A program made the translations under genes and the position numbers. Positions 32,171 through 37,774 of a stretch of DNA of 64,000 nt are shown here, piece by piece; position 1 is the stretch's first letter; each line of letters begins with the position of its first letter. The notes under the pieces were generated by a model. It was not told where the DNA came from and did not search any database. It saw only the letters and a list, made by a program, of their open reading frames with translations. Source of the DNA: Escherichia phage kaaroe; the sequence record MN850574.1; one strand, 5' to 3'.

Positions 32171-32851
32171 ATGATCAGAAACCGTCTTCCTCCAGATCCA
32201 GATATGCGAATTAATGCTAAATCTGTGTATATGTTATATTGCATGATGAAAGCTCATATGAACGGGCGTTATGATTGCGTAAAATACAATTGGAGGATGC
32301 GGTTATCTGATGCCGCATTCAATAAACGCAGAGATAAGTATTATTTCGCGAAATTAGCGGAAAAGTACAATCTAAGAGAATTATACTTCCTATTCCTAAG
32401 CAATCTGGTAGCTAATACCGATGCATGGGTAGGTGAAATCACCGATGTTGACGCATACGGGTTTTACATGGAGTACATCGGTAAAATCACTGATGCGGCA
32501 ACACGATTTGACGATGACATTAAAAGTCTTGTATACTTCTCAGAGAAACGCGGGGTTACTCTTAAAGAGCTAATTACATACAATCCCGCAACCGAAACTA
32601 GCGGTATATTTAAACTACTGCAAAATCGGATTATATCGTTTGAGTCGTTTATGTTGTTAGATAGCTTTCTAAATATAATCGACGAACACGACAAGGTAGC
32701 CAAAGACTTGATTTGGCAAACTTATAGTGTTAAAATGAAGGCGTACAAGAAACTACTTGTTATTGACGCCGCAAAAGCAAGAGCATTATTTGTTAAAGTA
32801 GTTAAAGAGTGTAAAGAAATATCTCAATTAAAAGCCGAAACAAATAGTTGA
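32171..32851 (+). CDS. 59: helicase loader gp59
   Basis: KSVYMLYCMMKAHMNGRYDCVKYNWRMRLSDAAFNKRRDKYYF, LVANTDAWVGEI, ISFESFMLLDSFLNIIDEHD match T4 gp59. Confidence 0.93.
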   Translation: MIRNRLPPDPDMRINAKSVYMLYCMMKAHMNGRYDCVKYNWRMRLSDAAFNKRRDKYYFAKLAEKYNLRELYFLFLSNLVANTDAWVGEITDVDAYGFYMEYIGKITDAATRFDDDIKSLVYFSEKRGVTLKELITYNPATETSGIFKLLQNRIISFESFMLLDSFLNIIDEHDKVAKDLIWQTYSVKMKAYKKLLVIDAAKARALFVKVVKECKEISQLKAETNS

Positions 32852-32875
32852 CAAGTAAATTTAAATCTGTATAAT
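32848..32875 (+). promoter_or_regulatory. sigma70-type promoter upstream of gene 32
   Basis: TTGACA-16-TATAAT about 37 nt upstream of ATG 32912. Confidence 0.6.
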
Positions 32876-32911: not shown

Positions 32912-33880
32912 ATGTTTAAACGCCAAGATTCTTCCAAACTGCAAGCTCAACTGGCCGCACTGAAAGGTGGCAACGGTTTCTCCAAAGAAGATCCGAAAGA
33001 GTGGAAGATTAAGACTGATGCAGCAGGTAACGGTGAAGCCCTGATTCGCTTCCTGCCGTCTAAGACAGAAGACGGTCTGCCGATTGTGAAACTGGTAAAC
33101 CATTCCTTCAAAGTTAATGGCAAATGGTATTGGGAAAACTGCTCAAGCACCCACGGTGATTTTGATTCTTGCCCTGTGTGCAAATATATTAACGAAAAAG
33201 ACTTGTACAATACCGATAAAACCGAATGGCAACTGATTAAGCGTAAAGCGTCTTACTACGCAAACATTCTGGTACTGAAAGATCCTCAAGCACCAGAAAA
33301 TGAAGGTAAGGTATTCAAATTCCGCTTCGGTCAGAAAATTTATGATAAGATCGTTGCAATGGTGAACGTGAATACCGATATGGGCGAAGTTCCGGTAGAT
33401 GTAACTTGTGTGTTCTCTGGTGCTAACTTCCTCCTGAAAGCTAAGAAGGTTGATAAACACCAGAACTATGATGATTCTCGTTTCATGCAGCAATCACAGC
33501 TTCCGAAAATTGAAGACGAAGCATATCAGAAATATCTGATGGAAAACATGGTTGATCTGAGTGAGATTGTAGCGCCTAGCCAGTTTAAACCGTTCGATGA
33601 ACTGGAAACCAAATTTAAGAAAACTATGGGCGTTTCTATGGTAGCTGGTGCTGCGGCTTCCAGTGCTGCGGCAGCGATTAACAGCCAGCTTGACGATTTT
33701 GACGCACAGATGAATGCATTCGATTCTGGTATGACCGCAGCTAGCACTGTAGTTGGTATTAACGCAGCTAGCACGGCGTTAGATTCTTCCGCTGATGACC
33801 TGATGGCATCTCTGGACCTGGGTGGCGGTACTTCCTCCGCTTCTGATCTGGATGATCTTGACGCTCTGTTAGGGATGTAA
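32912..33880 (+). CDS. 32: ssDNA-binding protein gp32
   Basis: [66 protein letters not shown] match T4 gp32; acidic C-terminus. Confidence 0.95.
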
Positions 33881-33891
33881 TGAATTTTACA

Positions 33892-33916
33892 GCCTCCCTT
33901 CGGGGAGGCTTTTTAT
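33892..33916 (+). terminator. rho-independent terminator after gene 32
   Basis: GCCTCCC-TTCG-GGGAGGC followed by TTTTTATT. Confidence 0.75.
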
Positions 33917-33942
33917 TGCCTAAAATTTTATGAAAAAAGATG

Positions 33943-33970
33943 TTGACATGTTGGCGAGGTAATGTATAAT
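33943..33970 (+). promoter_or_regulatory. sigma70-type promoter
   Basis: TTGACA-16-TATAAT, then SD GGAGGA and ATG 34001. Confidence 0.55.
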
Positions 33971-34000
33971 GAACTCATCGAAACAACGGAGGATAAAAAT

Positions 34001-35245
34001 ATGAAAACTTACTTTGCAAAAGATGTTTGTTATATTATCAAAAATAAATCCGTCTCAAAAACACCAGAACATTACGAGAATCGCTCAATAAATTATGCAT
34101 TGTCTCATGGTTTCGTTTATTTGGGGTTTATTGGAGAATATTCTGGATGCCAAACCTTGTCAAATTTTGAATGTAAAAGACATGGAACGTTTGCGGTCAG
34201 AGTACAAAATCTAAATCATGCTAAACATGGTTGCCCAAAATGTGCCATTGAGGATAGGGCAGAAAAAAGAAAATTGAGTATAGAAAAGATTTATAACGAC
34301 ATAAATCGAATCTGTGACGAGAACGGAACTATAGAATTAACAGAAATTAAAGGTGGGTATAAAACAACAAAAACACGAAATTTATTTTTTAAATGTAAAT
34401 TGTGTAATGGCATGTTTAATACATCACATGATCATTTAAAACGAGGTCAAGCATGTCCAAAATGTCGGTATAAAAAAATTTCTGTGTGTAATACTAGAAA
34501 CCAACTTGATATTGAACTTGACATAAAAATAGAATGTAAAAAAAGAAAAACCGTTGAATTTGTAGAATTTGAAAATGGATATTGCAGATACAAGTCAAAA
34601 AATTTAATAATGAGATGTTTGCGTGGACACGGAAATTACACAACAACAGCAAACGACTTTTTTAAGGGACGTGGTTGTCCTACATGCGGAGGAACGAAAA
34701 GACTAACAGAAAAACAAGCATCTGAACAAATGATAAAAGAGTGTGAAATTAGAGGTTATGATTTTTTGGGATTTTTTAATGGGTATAAAAAGTCGGCAGA
34801 ACCTAATGCAAAATTAAAATGTAAACGCAGTGGGGTAGTTTTTTATACATCACACAACAATTTTATGAAAGGACAAAACTGTAAGTGTTGCTCTGAATTT
34901 GGATATAGAACAACGAAATCTGGTGTTTTCTATGTACAGAAACTGTTAGAAAATAATATTTTTTGTGGTGTTAAATTTGGTGTAACCAATAGAACAACAA
35001 AAGAACGAATTGGAGGTCAATCTCGCCTTTCCAAATTCGACCACGAGATCTTTTATGAACTTACTTTACAAGACGGTCAAAAGATCTTAGACTTAGAGAA
35101 CAAGATCAAGGAAGCGATGAAAGGTAAAACTTCCTATATCTCAAAAGAAGATATGCCGGATGGCTACACAGAAACAGTAGCGCCGTCAGAATTGAGCACT
35201 ATCATGTATATCGTAAAAACTTTTGAAAAAGAGTTGACAGCGTAA
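34001..35245 (+). CDS. multi-zinc-ribbon protein with C-terminal GIY-YIG/T5orf172-like domain (putative homing endonuclease)
   Basis: Four repeats of HG.F...N...GCPKC-type CxxC ribbons; C-terminal GVFYV..KFGVTNR..R motif; inserted between genes 32 and frd. Confidence 0.6.
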   Translation: MKTYFAKDVCYIIKNKSVSKTPEHYENRSINYALSHGFVYLGFIGEYSGCQTLSNFECKRHGTFAVRVQNLNHAKHGCPKCAIEDRAEKRKLSIEKIYNDINRICDENGTIELTEIKGGYKTTKTRNLFFKCKLCNGMFNTSHDHLKRGQACPKCRYKKISVCNTRNQLDIELDIKIECKKRKTVEFVEFENGYCRYKSKNLIMRCLRGHGNYTTTANDFFKGRGCPTCGGTKRLTEKQASEQMIKECEIRGYDFLGFFNGYKKSAEPNAKLKCKRSGVVFYTSHNNFMKGQNCKCCSEFGYRTTKSGVFYVQKLLENNIFCGVKFGVTNRTTKERIGGQSRLSKFDHEIFYELTLQDGQKILDLENKIKEAMKGKTSYISKEDMPDGYTETVAPSELSTIMYIVKTFEKELTA

Positions 35246-35261
35246 CGCAATAGTGTATAAT
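35234..35261 (+). promoter_or_regulatory. sigma70-type promoter
   Basis: TTGACA-16-TATAAT overlapping 3' end of the endonuclease-like ORF; ATG 35293. Confidence 0.5.
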
Positions 35262-35292
35262 GTACATATCGAAACAAAGAGAGGATTATATT

Positions 35293-35622
35293 ATGTGGAC
35301 TGTAGAACAAATCGTAGATGAAAAAGTAAGTATTATCTCATGTGGCACTATTGAAGAATGCCTAAAAGCCGCCAATCGTGAATGTATTACGGTTTATGAA
35401 GCCCGTCGCGGGGATGGTACTGTGTTAACCAGCGACTATCGATATGAACCAAAAATGATTACCTTTCGTTTCTGGGAAAATGGTGTTAATGTTGGGGTAT
35501 CTCACTTAAAACGTTTTCGTGATTATTCTGACCGTTATTTCATCACACCGGATAACGGTCAAGAATTTAAGACAGCAATCACAGAAGAAAATGTAAACGA
35601 AAACTATTTCAAACTGATTTGA
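35293..35622 (+). CDS. hypothetical protein
   Basis: GAGAGGATTATATT-ATG cassette. Confidence 0.5.
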   Translation: MWTVEQIVDEKVSIISCGTIEECLKAANRECITVYEARRGDGTVLTSDYRYEPKMITFRFWENGVNVGVSHLKRFRDYSDRYFITPDNGQEFKTAITEENVNENYFKLI

Positions 35623-35637
35623 TGGGAGATTTATATT

Positions 35638-36207
35638 ATGATTCAATGTGTATTTGCGATTGGTGACACTAAAATGTCAGATGAAAACTGGGCTTTTGGT
35701 TTTAAAGGCGGTTTACCGTGGGGTCGTCCAATCAAAAAGGACATGGAAAACTTTAAAATGCGCACTATGGGAGATGTTGATCTTGCGGCGGTAGTAATGG
35801 GACGTAATACCTTTGAAAGTCTGCCTAAAGCACTGGAAGGTCGTCTTAATGTGGTTATTAGTACCGATGCCAGCAAGCCGACACCGAAAGCCAAAAACGG
35901 CGACCAGCCTAATGTGTATACTGGAATTGAATTAAAGGATCTGTTAAAAGTCCTGGAGAAAACGCAAGGTTTGGTAAGTGTTATCGGCGGACCTTCCCTG
36001 ATTGAAAAAGCGGTTGACTTTGCGGATCGTATTGTGTTAACGTATGTTCAACGTTCAGGAATCAACGATCCATTTGAATATGATGTTGGTATCTCTAAGG
36101 AAATGATTCAGGAATTATATTTTGACTTTGTAACCAAAGAAGAACATAATTACTTCCTTGATGATTACCTGATCAGCGAACAAATTTTAGAACGTAAGAA
36201 GGCGTAA
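35638..36207 (+). CDS. frd: dihydrofolate reductase
   Basis: AFGFKGGLPWG, MGRNTFESLP, VIGGPSL motifs of DHFR. Confidence 0.88.
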   Translation: MIQCVFAIGDTKMSDENWAFGFKGGLPWGRPIKKDMENFKMRTMGDVDLAAVVMGRNTFESLPKALEGRLNVVISTDASKPTPKAKNGDQPNVYTGIELKDLLKVLEKTQGLVSVIGGPSLIEKAVDFADRIVLTYVQRSGINDPFEYDVGISKEMIQELYFDFVTKEEHNYFLDDYLISEQILERKKA

Positions 36208-36300: not shown

Positions 36301-36570
36301 ATGAAAGTCGGTATTATTCAATTATGGACGGCTACCAGTGAAAACTACGCAGTAGCCGTAGATTATTACGGTTTACAATATCTCTATGATGAAGCGAGCG
36401 CATCATGGCTTCCTGTGCAAGAAAATAGCGATATATCAAGACCTGCTACTATATTCGACCGTGGCGTTGTCTTTATCGATATTGACGAGACAGTAGCAAA
36501 ACTGCGTAAGAAAGCAATCAATAAGAAAAAGGTGATGTGGGATGAAAGAATATTTGAAACTATTGCGTGA
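36301..36570 (+). CDS. hypothetical protein
   Basis: ATG 36301; 3' end overlaps td start. Confidence 0.4.
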   Translation: MKVGIIQLWTATSENYAVAVDYYGLQYLYDEASASWLPVQENSDISRPATIFDRGVVFIDIDETVAKLRKKAINKKKVMWDERIFETIA

Positions 36571-37774
36571 TGTTCTTGATAATGGATGGCCTCGTGAAGA
36601 CCGAACTGGGGTAGGTACGCTATCTAAATTCGGCGCAGAGATGCGAATTGATTTAAGCAAGGGTTTCCCATTACTGACCACTAAAAAGATGGCTACAGCC
36701 TCTGTAATTGGCGAATTGCTATGGTTTATGGAGGGATCACTTGACCGCCGTCGCTTACAGGAAATTACACGCGGTAAGTTTGACGAAGAAGCCTTCGACA
36801 TTTGGCGCGGCAACTGTCTTGATATGAAAGAAAAGAATCCTTTGCGATTCAATGGTTATAATGTCGGCAATATGTATGGTATGGCATGGCGACGCAAACC
36901 GATTCATCCACACGGTGAAATCAAAATTAAGCGCGTTAAGAGCAAATATGCACATACATTTAAGCACCCGTGGGTAGAAGACTTTACGCCAACCAATGAA
37001 ACAGAAGACCGTTTATGTGCTATCTGGCGTGGTATGCGTTATGAAGAGTTTGATTCTGAATATAATCAATTCTTAGTAGCAGACCACTGGAAGACTCAAT
37101 CTAATTTTGTTAATGATGCATATTGCTTGTGGGGATTCCAGGAATGGGTAGATGATGGTTATTTCGGTTATCTGCTTGATAGTGATTATCTGGGCGGGGA
37201 TATTTTAGCGCCAGATACCACGATCTTTGCTAGTATGGACGTAGACACATCGAGCACTAAAGACGATGAAGAATATGTCTATCGACCGAAGATTTGGGAA
37301 GACCAGTTACAAAACGTGATTGAACAAATTAAAAACAATCCAACGGATCGACGTATCATCATTGACTCATGGAACGTACAAGGAACACATAATGCTGTAT
37401 TAGGTGTATGTCATCCTTTCGTGCAATTCTACGTCAATGAAGGTAAACTGTCTTGTATGTGGTTTCAGCGAAGCGTAGACAGCTTTTTAGGCTTGCCCTT
37501 TAACGTCGCCAGCTATGCGCTGTTAACTCACATCATAGCGAAAATGTGTGATCTTGAGGTAGGAGAACTGATTTTCTCTGGTGGAGATACTCACATTTAC
37601 AAAAACCATTTTGATCAAGTTATGGAACAGTTAAGCCGTGTTCCGTTTGATAAACCAACGATTGAGTTGCCGGAATTTAAATCTTTAGATGAGGTATTGA
37701 CAAAGACTCCGAAAGACTTTAAAATTCACAACTATCAAAGCCATCCAGCAATCACCGCTCAAATGGCAGTATAA
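36542..37774 (+). CDS. td: thymidylate synthase with ~105-aa in-frame insertion, no intron
   Basis: DRTGVGT, LLTTKK, DRRIIIDSWN, CHPFVQFYV, QRSVDSFLGLPFNVASYALL, SGGDTHIYKNH conserved; 410 aa versus 286 in T4. Confidence 0.93.
   Translation: MKEYLKLLRDVLDNGWPREDRTGVGTLSKFGAEMRIDLSKGFPLLTTKKMATASVIGELLWFMEGSLDRRRLQEITRGKFDEEAFDIWRGNCLDMKEKNPLRFNGYNVGNMYGMAWRRKPIHPHGEIKIKRVKSKYAHTFKHPWVEDFTPTNETEDRLCAIWRGMRYEEFDSEYNQFLVADHWKTQSNFVNDAYCLWGFQEWVDDGYFGYLLDSDYLGGDILAPDTTIFASMDVDTSSTKDDEEYVYRPKIWEDQLQNVIEQIKNNPTDRRIIIDSWNVQGTHNAVLGVCHPFVQFYVNEGKLSCMWFQRSVDSFLGLPFNVASYALLTHIIAKMCDLEVGELIFSGGDTHIYKNHFDQVMEQLSRVPFDKPTIELPEFKSLDEVLTKTPKDFKIHNYQSHPAITAQMAV

Follow-up and report, generated by a model that had tools for sequence, protein, structure and literature searches.

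The gene examined here lies between gene 32 and frd in the genome of Escherichia phage kaaroe, and its product joins an array of zinc ribbons to a nuclease domain of the GIY-YIG superfamily. It was analysed computationally in a 64,000-nucleotide (nt) stretch of sequence record MN850574.1 (the window), starting from an earlier note that a model had made from the letters alone. Its best-matching phage records place the window in the genus Krischvirus, among the RB49-like coliphages of T4 type. At exactly the coordinates given in the earlier note there is an intact open reading frame (ORF) of 414 amino acids (aa) on the + strand, which starts with ATG at 34001, stops with TAA at 35243-35245 and has GGAGG upstream. 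The protein matches PHROG 681, 'endonuclease', with an E-value of 1e-73, and a tblastn search detected no paralogue of it within the window. The features of the locus are the following:

33891-33915 (hairpin 33891-33910), + strand: intrinsic terminator of gene 32, an 8-bp GC-rich stem with a run of T after it, kept in relatives
33935-33986, + strand: left copy of a 52-nt direct repeat (repeat family D1), comprising promoter and 5' leader CATCGAAACAA
33943-33970, + strand: predicted promoter P1, TTGACA-N16-TATAAT, 12/12 matches to the sigma-70 consensus, just 3' of the gene 32 hairpin
33988-33992, + strand: Shine-Dalgarno sequence GGAGG, 8 nt 5' of the ATG, read directly from the sequence
34001-35245, + strand: coding sequence of the zinc-ribbon array/GIY-YIG (T5orf172-type) endonuclease, 414 aa (PHROG 681, Pfam, intact ORF, purifying selection within allele lineages)
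35226-35277, + strand: right copy of the 52-nt direct repeat (family D1)
35234-35261, + strand: predicted promoter P2, TTGACA-N16-TATAAT, 12/12, overlapping the end of the coding sequence
35293-35622, + strand: 109-aa ORF, homologue of RB49 ORF239, between the nuclease gene and frd; it follows gene 32 directly in empty-site phages
35638-36207: frd, downstream of the ORF239 homologue and followed by td

Gene 32 ends at 33880, and the hairpin at 33891-33910 is the only terminator-like site within 33700-35700. This terminator is the stem-loop part of the upstream element, which resembles the promoter-early stem-loop (PeSL) elements of related phages. The two 52-nt repeat copies, 71% identical and at a spacing of 1291, bracket the cassette. 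The -35 hexamer of P2 falls within the final two sense codons ahead of the TAA (the ORF ends ...EKELTA*). P1 is predicted to drive the nuclease gene and P2 the ORF239 homologue, a protein for which the Pfam scan gave no match.

Several statements of the earlier note about the surroundings need adjustment. The gene has an upstream promoter (P1), but this promoter is a shared cassette element, and in phage PHB13 an equivalent single promoter drives the next ORF. The gene lies in the 32-frd region as stated, but it is separated from frd by the 109-aa ORF239 homologue. The assertion that this slot is short in T4 was wrong: it measures 1257 bp there and contains frd.1, frd.2 and frd.3.

The zinc-ribbon array

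The N-terminal part of the protein matches the CapR homology domain (Pfam PF21817) in four stretches, with 46.5 bits against a cutoff of 24.2 and an E-value of 4e-12, the best stretch being aa 101-155. PF14311 (DUF4379, 'treble clef'), which like PF05265 (DUF723) is related to PF21817, is also matched, with 25.0 bits against a threshold of 24.5, and the NCBIfam scan returned only a sub-threshold zinc-ribbon match. The units are arranged as follows:

34064-34270, + strand: zinc-ribbon unit 1 (CapR-homology), aa ~22-90, ligands C58, H61, C78 and C81
34280-34489, + strand: unit 2, aa ~94-163, ligands C132, C135, C152 and C155
34502-34708, + strand: unit 3, aa ~168-236, ligands C206, H210, C226 and C229
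34709-34900, + strand: unit 4, aa ~237-300, with C274, C294, C296 and C297

The earlier note had described four tandem repeats of about 45 aa, each ending in a CxxC pair. The cysteine pairs were confirmed (C78-x2-C81, C152-x2-C155, C226-x2-C229 and C294-x2-C297, the last one being CKCC), but the period is longer, 74, 74 and 68 aa for units of 67-76 aa. About 20 residues N-terminal to the CxxC there is a second ligand pair, C58-x2-H61 in unit 1, C132-x2-C135 in unit 2 and C206-x3-H210 in unit 3, so that units 1-3 have the four ligands (C/H-x2-3 ... CxxC, spacing 20) characteristic of the CapR-homology class, whose two pairs stand some 20-26 residues apart. Unit 4 has only C274 in addition to C294, C296 and C297, and its first ligand pair is therefore degenerate. 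In an alignment of the four units, a tyrosine and three cysteines are invariant. The AlphaFold model of the full-length protein (predicted local distance difference test, pLDDT, 87; predicted template modelling score, pTM, 0.39) shows four equivalent units, each of a helix and beta-strands, strung like beads. The Cys pairs of CapR are needed for DNA binding (PMC8096241), and sequence-specific DNA binding by a CapR-homology domain has been demonstrated for PLE CapR only (PMC8096241). Internal nucleotide repeats by which the number of units could be altered are weak (14-27 nt, 73-93% identity).

Zinc-ribbon arrays were also seen joined to other C-terminal domains, in the metagenome homologues P0044, P0046, P0047, P0052 and P0058. 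The C-terminus of P0052 gave weak, sub-threshold matches to the PD-(D/E)xK families REase_MTES_1575 and DUF559; those of P0044, P0046 and P0047, which are of the IEYQG.QH type, are read as the same kind of domain, and P0058 weakly matches PvuRts1I-like N. Arrays of this kind thus resemble a portable module for DNA targeting.

The C-terminal nuclease domain

The array is followed by a domain that can be delimited as:

34901-35242, + strand: GIY-YIG superfamily nuclease domain, T5orf172/MUG113 branch, aa 301-414

The GVFYV...KFGVTNR..R block that the earlier note had picked out is present at aa 308-336, and the note's suggestion of a GIY-YIG/T5orf172-like C-terminus is upheld by structural and transitive profile evidence, the Pfam check proposed for it being blank for the window copy. 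Neither T5orf172 (PF10544) nor MUG113 (PF13455) was reached, with no match of the whole protein at E<=1 and none of the isolated C-terminus at E<=10. The family assignment is therefore transitive and structural.

The AlphaFold model of the isolated domain (aa 296-414, pLDDT 94) consists of a beta-hairpin, a helix, a strand and further helices. This is the alpha/beta arrangement of the GIY-YIG fold, in which the beta1-beta2 hairpin carries both motifs and is followed by alpha1, a third strand and flanking helices. Foldseek comparison of the domain with the viral models of BFVD yielded 95 matches at E<=1e-3. Names such as 'GIY-YIG domain-containing', 'Bacteriophage T5 Orf172...' and 'homing endonuclease' occur among those with E-values of 1e-6 to 1e-13, and Mt1B1_P17, an Odn-like protein, was matched too. 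When the full-length model was compared with the PDB, nothing meaningful was found (best E 0.014, TM score ~0.1), which is unsurprising for a flexible model of several domains whose pTM is 0.39. PDB sequence searches found no match for the protein or for the profile of 37 domain sequences described below.

A profile search with the domain against 1.84 billion proteins retrieved 1956 cluster representatives, 666 of them at E<=1e-10, and in all 150 of the matches listed the domain lies at or near the C-terminus. Among the matches with E-values of about 1e-20 to 1e-30 are P0066, which over the matched region scores 25.9 bits with MUG113 (threshold 22.3), and P0085, which over the matched region scores 25.5 bits with MUG113 and 22.9 bits with T5orf172 (threshold 20). 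When 36 diverse homologous domains were scanned together with the window copy, MUG113 was matched at E<=1 by 24 sequences, T5orf172 by 21 and GIY-YIG (PF01541) by seven; the window copy is not among the seven. The best E-values in this set of 37 were 5e-8 for MUG113 and 1e-7 for T5orf172. Because of this transitive homology and the fold, the assignment of the C-terminus to the T5orf172/MUG113 branch of the GIY-YIG superfamily is well supported.

Nine residues, Y311, K325, G327, R336, G359, E366, G388, E391 and T392, are invariant across the 37 diverse sequences. Y311 (GVFYV), the predicted GIY tyrosine, is likewise invariant in the 31 alleles described in the next section. R336 lies within the helix 333-343 and E366 in the helix after beta3; R336 together with E366 and/or E391 likely supplies the catalytic Arg and Glu. 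By the topology of the model, one of these glutamates may be equivalent to E75 of I-TevI or E180 of Odn.

Alleles and states of the slot in related phages

The slot was surveyed in the 40 best-matching phage records. An allele of the gene is present between gene 32 and the ORF239 homologue in 28 of them and missing from the other 12. In PHB13 the site is empty and the ORF239 homologue follows gene 32 directly; in MIZ6 the slot is occupied by an unrelated ORF of 109 aa. An allele alone is found in RB49 (485 aa), Phi1 (460), JEP8 (541), Delraymugoa (542), GEC-3S (392), W115 (338), Sf20 (281), ELT4 (269), JK32 (412), Whisky (486) and phiS (414), and an allele together with the unrelated 109-aa ORF in FL37 and Cognac. 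Anything from no cassette to two can thus occupy the slot, the unrelated ORF being alternative or additional cargo. This ORF (MFLNAT...; positions 1400-1729 of the MIZ6 locus L001, 2661-2990 of the FL37 locus L012 and 2657-2986 of the Cognac locus L013) is without a Pfam match. The earlier note had proposed this comparison of the 32-frd junction, and had named the lack of a nuclease fold and conservation of the gene at this locus in all relatives as grounds for doubting its conclusion. Neither holds, since the fold is there and the slot is polymorphic.

Presence of the gene in the slot is incongruent with the backbone, the sporadic distribution expected of homing endonuclease genes. The window shares its allele with phiS, whose flanks are 92.9% identical, and not with closer backbones such as Delraymugoa (97.5%). 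Fourteen isolates represent 11 allele types, and the ORF is intact, without internal stop, in all 14. The N-terminal regions are 98-99% identical within a type, 63% identical between JEP8/Delraymugoa and W115 and 27-48% identical otherwise. When metagenomic sequences were included (31 alleles), the number of zinc units per allele ranged from 3 to 6, and the median pairwise identity climbed from 28% in aa 1-300 through 53% in aa 301-343 to 96% in aa 344-414. At the nucleotide level, alleles that are 30-60% identical to the window become 90-100% identical to it at a point that varies from one allele to the next, within about 34964-35204, and this leads into the following feature:

35000-35245, + strand: constant 3' segment, 90-100% nucleotide identity to otherwise unrelated alleles

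Judged from these alignments, the constant segment is the right-hand homology arm in which the breakpoints of allele replacement fall.

The ratio of nonsynonymous to synonymous substitution rates (dN/dS) in three close allele pairs was 0.43, 0.08 and 0.19, which shows purifying selection on the gene inside the allele lineages. Positive selection within the lineages was also considered and is unsupported by these values (0.08-0.43). Hypermutation of the diversity-generating retroelement type was rejected, since indels and entire units make up the differences between alleles and the identities have a bimodal distribution.

Annotation of the homologues is uneven. Those of RB49, Phi1 and GEC-3S already carry the RefSeq label 'endonuclease', and one record reads 'putative GIY-YIG nuclease family protein'. 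In the nearest relatives the gene is labelled 'hypothetical', and it can now be assigned to the CapR-zinc-finger/T5orf172 putative homing endonucleases.

Cassette boundaries and neighbouring genes

Each cassette in the slot is bracketed by TTGACA-N16-TATAAT followed by the leader CATCGAAACAA(C/A)GGAGGAT. The P1 and P2 elements are kept in 15 relatives. Like the boundaries of PeSL-type cassettes, which are early sigma-70 consensus promoters with AT-rich sequence upstream, they flank a variable gene. With regard to stem-loops the two ends differ: the strong hairpin at 33891-33910 stands before P1, whereas P2 has only a short 3-bp palindrome, GCGTAACGC, in its spacer.

Four comparisons bear on the endpoints of exchange. 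The empty site of PHB13 has a single hybrid promoter/leader ahead of the ORF239 homologue. In Cognac, the second promoter has a P1-type spacer. P1 and the leader of the window are identical, up to the Shine-Dalgarno sequence, to the MIZ6 element ahead of the non-nuclease ORF, and the sequences diverge beyond it. Finally, the alleles of the window and phiS are 98-100% identical in nucleotide sequence from the leader to the -35 hexamer of P2, whereas identity drops to 72% in the P1 spacer and to 58-78% in the next ORF. These comparisons indicate that the exchange endpoints fall in the promoter/leader repeats, that is, that crossover takes place within the motif. Such a pattern is the hallmark of modular PeSL-type shuffling. 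The transfer between the window and phiS, the only recent one that could be traced, agrees with such shuffling no less well than with classical homing.

The ORF239 homologue, which is 58-78% identical to its phiS counterpart in nucleotide sequence, is 83-100% identical at its 5' end to the other relatives compared; it is a second mosaic segment directly downstream of the nuclease cassette. There is a small mosaic patch in frd as well, where positions 35838-35975 are 66-84% identical to phiS, as against 92-100% in the rest of the gene. On the other side of the cassette, the Ala/Ser/Asp-rich C-terminal tail of the gene 32 product (33736-33762) differs from that of phiS by a 27-nt indel. A third perfect consensus promoter, TTGACAAGTAAATTTAAATCTGTATAAT (32848-32875, + strand), lies just upstream of gene 32; of the 15 relatives scanned, 13 have it unchanged or with a single substitution, and in Cognac and ELT4 it was not detected by the strict pattern.

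Further downstream, td (36542-37774, + strand) encodes a thymidylate synthase of 410 aa. The Pfam Thymidylat_synt match covers aa 2-410 in a single stretch and includes all 266 profile positions; therefore about 140 aa of extra sequence are inserted in the enzyme. The td genes of the Krischvirus relatives are similar in length (1221-1233 nt). Unlike td of T4, that of the window has neither the intron nor I-TevI.

Role of the gene and mobility of the cassette

We think, with moderate confidence, that the gene encodes an immediate-early, sequence-specific endonuclease residing in a promoter-bounded slot, likely with a free-standing homing or marker-exclusion role. The four CapR-type zinc-ribbon units, strung like beads, would read a long DNA target, and the C-terminal GIY-YIG domain of the T5orf172/MUG113 branch would cut near it. 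Co-infecting relatives without the same allele would be cleaved, and the break would stimulate recombination of the cassette. Gain, loss and replacement proceed by homologous recombination with endpoints in the flanking PeSL-like promoter/5'-leader repeats and, where one allele replaces another, in the 3' half of the nuclease-domain sequence, which is conserved. The identity of the protein as a nuclease is well supported, and self-driven homing is a plausible prediction.

A number of observations weigh against this interpretation. The window copy gives no Pfam or NCBIfam nuclease match even at E-values up to 10, and the canonical YIG tyrosine is replaced by an invariant lysine (K325-F326-G327, KFG), although the glycine is kept. 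For the single allele pair available, the window and phiS, not one private variant is shared over the 1040 nt on the upstream side or the 950 nt on the downstream side. High identity ends at the promoter repeats, and therefore classical homing with co-conversion of flanking markers is not visible in this pair. Exchange bounded by promoter repeats, as in PeSL shuffling (PMC2839356), requires no nuclease. Moreover, homing endonuclease genes usually decay once they are fixed, whereas the alleles of this slot are intact and under purifying selection, which may mean that they have a function useful to the phage. The mobility that the sequences document is recombination between promoter repeats, and a nuclease-induced break could still stimulate it.

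These points lead to an explanation in which the cassette moves only by recombination between PeSL-like promoter/leader elements and the nuclease is kept for the benefit of the phage, for example for cutting competitors, satellites or other foreign DNA, as ICP1 Odn does; the many DNA-binding arrays would then correspond to different targets. The position of the exchange endpoints exactly in the promoter/leader repeats and the mosaic promoters speak for it, as do the non-nuclease ORF that shares slot and brackets, the lack of co-converted flanking markers and the fact that every allele is intact with dN/dS below 1. There are precedents both for domesticated T5orf172 nucleases (PMC8263062, PMC10448857) and for PeSL mini-circles, which have been described in RB49 and phi1 (PMC2839356). 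However, blastn found no DNA-level match to the gene in 5,426 complete E. coli genomes, whereas it was such matches that revealed the satellite targets of Odn-like proteins (PMC10448857); plasmids gave weak matches only, to Gram-positive zinc-ribbon proteins, and the family behaves as selfish genes do, being free-standing, multi-copy and located near essential genes (PMC10448857). We regard maintenance for phage benefit alone as possible but somewhat unlikely. On the strength of the same blastn and plasmid searches, an Odn-like capture of the DNA-binding array from a satellite or prophage of E. coli was rejected. It is considerably harder to see the main role of the protein in regulation, with a phage or host promoter bound early in infection and the nuclease domain inactive or secondary; it would then be a domesticated endonuclease, as satellite CapR is, or an autorepressor comparable to I-TevI. 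In favour of this, the N-terminal units belong to the CapR-homology domains, CapR itself represses transcription and binds the -35 region of a promoter (PMC8096241), and the gene stands under an immediate-early promoter; yet CapR has no nuclease domain, whereas the 414-aa protein retains one, with Y311, R336, E366 and E391 invariant over 37 divergent homologues, and no part of the protein is better conserved than its nuclease half. Such a role seems very improbable to us. Least credible of all is a decaying selfish remnant devoid of present activity. Short alleles do exist (Sf20, 281 aa; ELT4, 269 aa; W115, 338 aa), but the 14 alleles are all free of internal stops, dN/dS is 0.08-0.43 in the three close pairs, and the promoter and the Shine-Dalgarno sequence are perfect.

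A more speculative extension of the endonuclease interpretation, to which we attach only slight probability, is that the Krischvirus slot after gene 32 is a specificity-swapping nuclease locus, which would serve self/non-self discrimination and exclusion among co-infecting siblings rather than the homing of a gene with one simple target. The near-constant catalytic 3' module and the constant promoter brackets would be the recombination arms for swapping zinc-ribbon arrays, and frequency-dependent competition would maintain the alleles, each of them cutting genomes that carry a rival allele or an empty slot. At least 11 divergent recognition arrays occur in the 14 isolates and about 30 in metagenome clusters.

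The locus amounts to a natural experiment: the brackets and the catalytic third are constant, the arrays are many and unrelated, and empty and alternative-cargo states exist, all in ~95%-identical coliphages that are easily grown. It therefore offers a practical test of whether nucleases of this kind bring about their own spread or are carried along by PeSL recombination, and it is also suited to asking how arrays of zinc-ribbon units encode DNA specificity.

Comparison with known systems

The family of putative homing endonucleases with CapR zinc fingers and a T5orf172 domain, defined by Barth, Dunham & Seed (2023, PMC10448857), gains a new member in this protein and is thereby extended to a T4-type genus. 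The earlier note had called its architecture unusual relative to the Seg and Tev enzymes; this is correct, but the architecture itself has been described for T5orf172 putative homing endonucleases (PMC10448857, PMC8096241). Netter et al. (2021, PMC8096241) found that the satellite repressor CapR shares its zinc-finger DNA-binding domain with putative T5orf172 homing endonucleases of ICP1, and CapR, DUF723 or DUF4379 zinc fingers, often repeated, were present in 87% of 229 T5orf172 putative homing endonucleases (PMC10448857). In that family the number of units alters by recombination, and homologous nuclease domains are paired with unrelated DNA-binding regions (PMC10448857). ICP1 gp174, gp165 and others (PMC10448857, PMC8096241) have the same N-terminal treble-clef/zinc-ribbon array and C-terminal T5orf172/MUG113-like GIY-YIG domain as the window protein. 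Further common traits are a free-standing gene beside an essential replication gene, a variable unit number and the joining of homologous nuclease domains to unrelated DNA-binding regions. The window differs in being from a T4-type Krischvirus, a genus not mentioned in PMC10448857, which states that T4 has no T5orf172 genes, and in having a copy below the Pfam thresholds of T5orf172 and MUG113. Peculiar to the present locus are the many alleles that compete for one promoter-bracketed slot and have a near-identical 3' third, a pattern not reported in PMC10448857. By title and abstract, none of the papers found to mention both Krischvirus and endonuclease analyses this locus.

Odn (ICP1 gp88), an origin-directed T5orf172 nuclease, cleaves DNA in vitro, and its E180A mutation abolishes cleavage (Barth et al. 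2021, PMC8263062). Among the members of the branch cited here, Odn alone has demonstrated in vitro cleavage, and it has in common with the window protein the T5orf172/GIY-YIG catalytic domain with conserved, probably catalytic Arg and Glu. Unlike Odn, the window protein has zinc-ribbon units, and no cellular or satellite counterpart of them was found in 5,426 E. coli genomes. Similarity to the structure-specific GIY-YIG nucleases SLX1 and HIGLE is at the level of the fold only (10-15% sequence identity); in contrast to the window protein, these nucleases act in eukaryotic repair, have a RING/PHD finger and work with SLX4 as partner.

In T4, the gene for the GIY-YIG endonuclease SegG lies between genes 59 and 32, and that for I-TevI within td. 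Both lineages thus tend to have endonuclease genes in this neighbourhood, but the genes and their insertion points are different. The T4 Seg (SegG) and I-TevI enzymes share with the window protein the GIY-YIG superfamily, the modular 'beads on a string' construction and a free-standing gene in the 59-32-frd-td neighbourhood. In the Seg and Tev enzymes, however, the nuclease domain is N-terminal and has the canonical YIG tyrosine, whereas it is C-terminal with KFG here; their DNA-binding modules are of the NUMOD/helix-turn-helix type instead of four CapR zinc ribbons, and SegG is inserted before gene 32, the window gene after it.

With respect to its boundaries, the cassette is closest to the PeSL cassettes (PMC2839356; Comeau et al. 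2014, PMC4122927), whose modular shuffling was described in RB49 and phi1 by Arbiol et al. (2010, PMC2839356), a paper that mentions neither ORF240 nor the gene-32 slot. In both cases strong consensus sigma-70 promoters bracket variable early genes (a strong stem-loop accompanies P1 of the window, whereas P2 has only the short palindrome), recombination between the elements leads to insertion, deletion or replacement, and the phages are of the same genus. What distinguishes the present cassette is that its right promoter overlaps the end of the coding sequence and that its cargo is a nuclease, which could in principle stimulate the recombination by which the cassette is exchanged.

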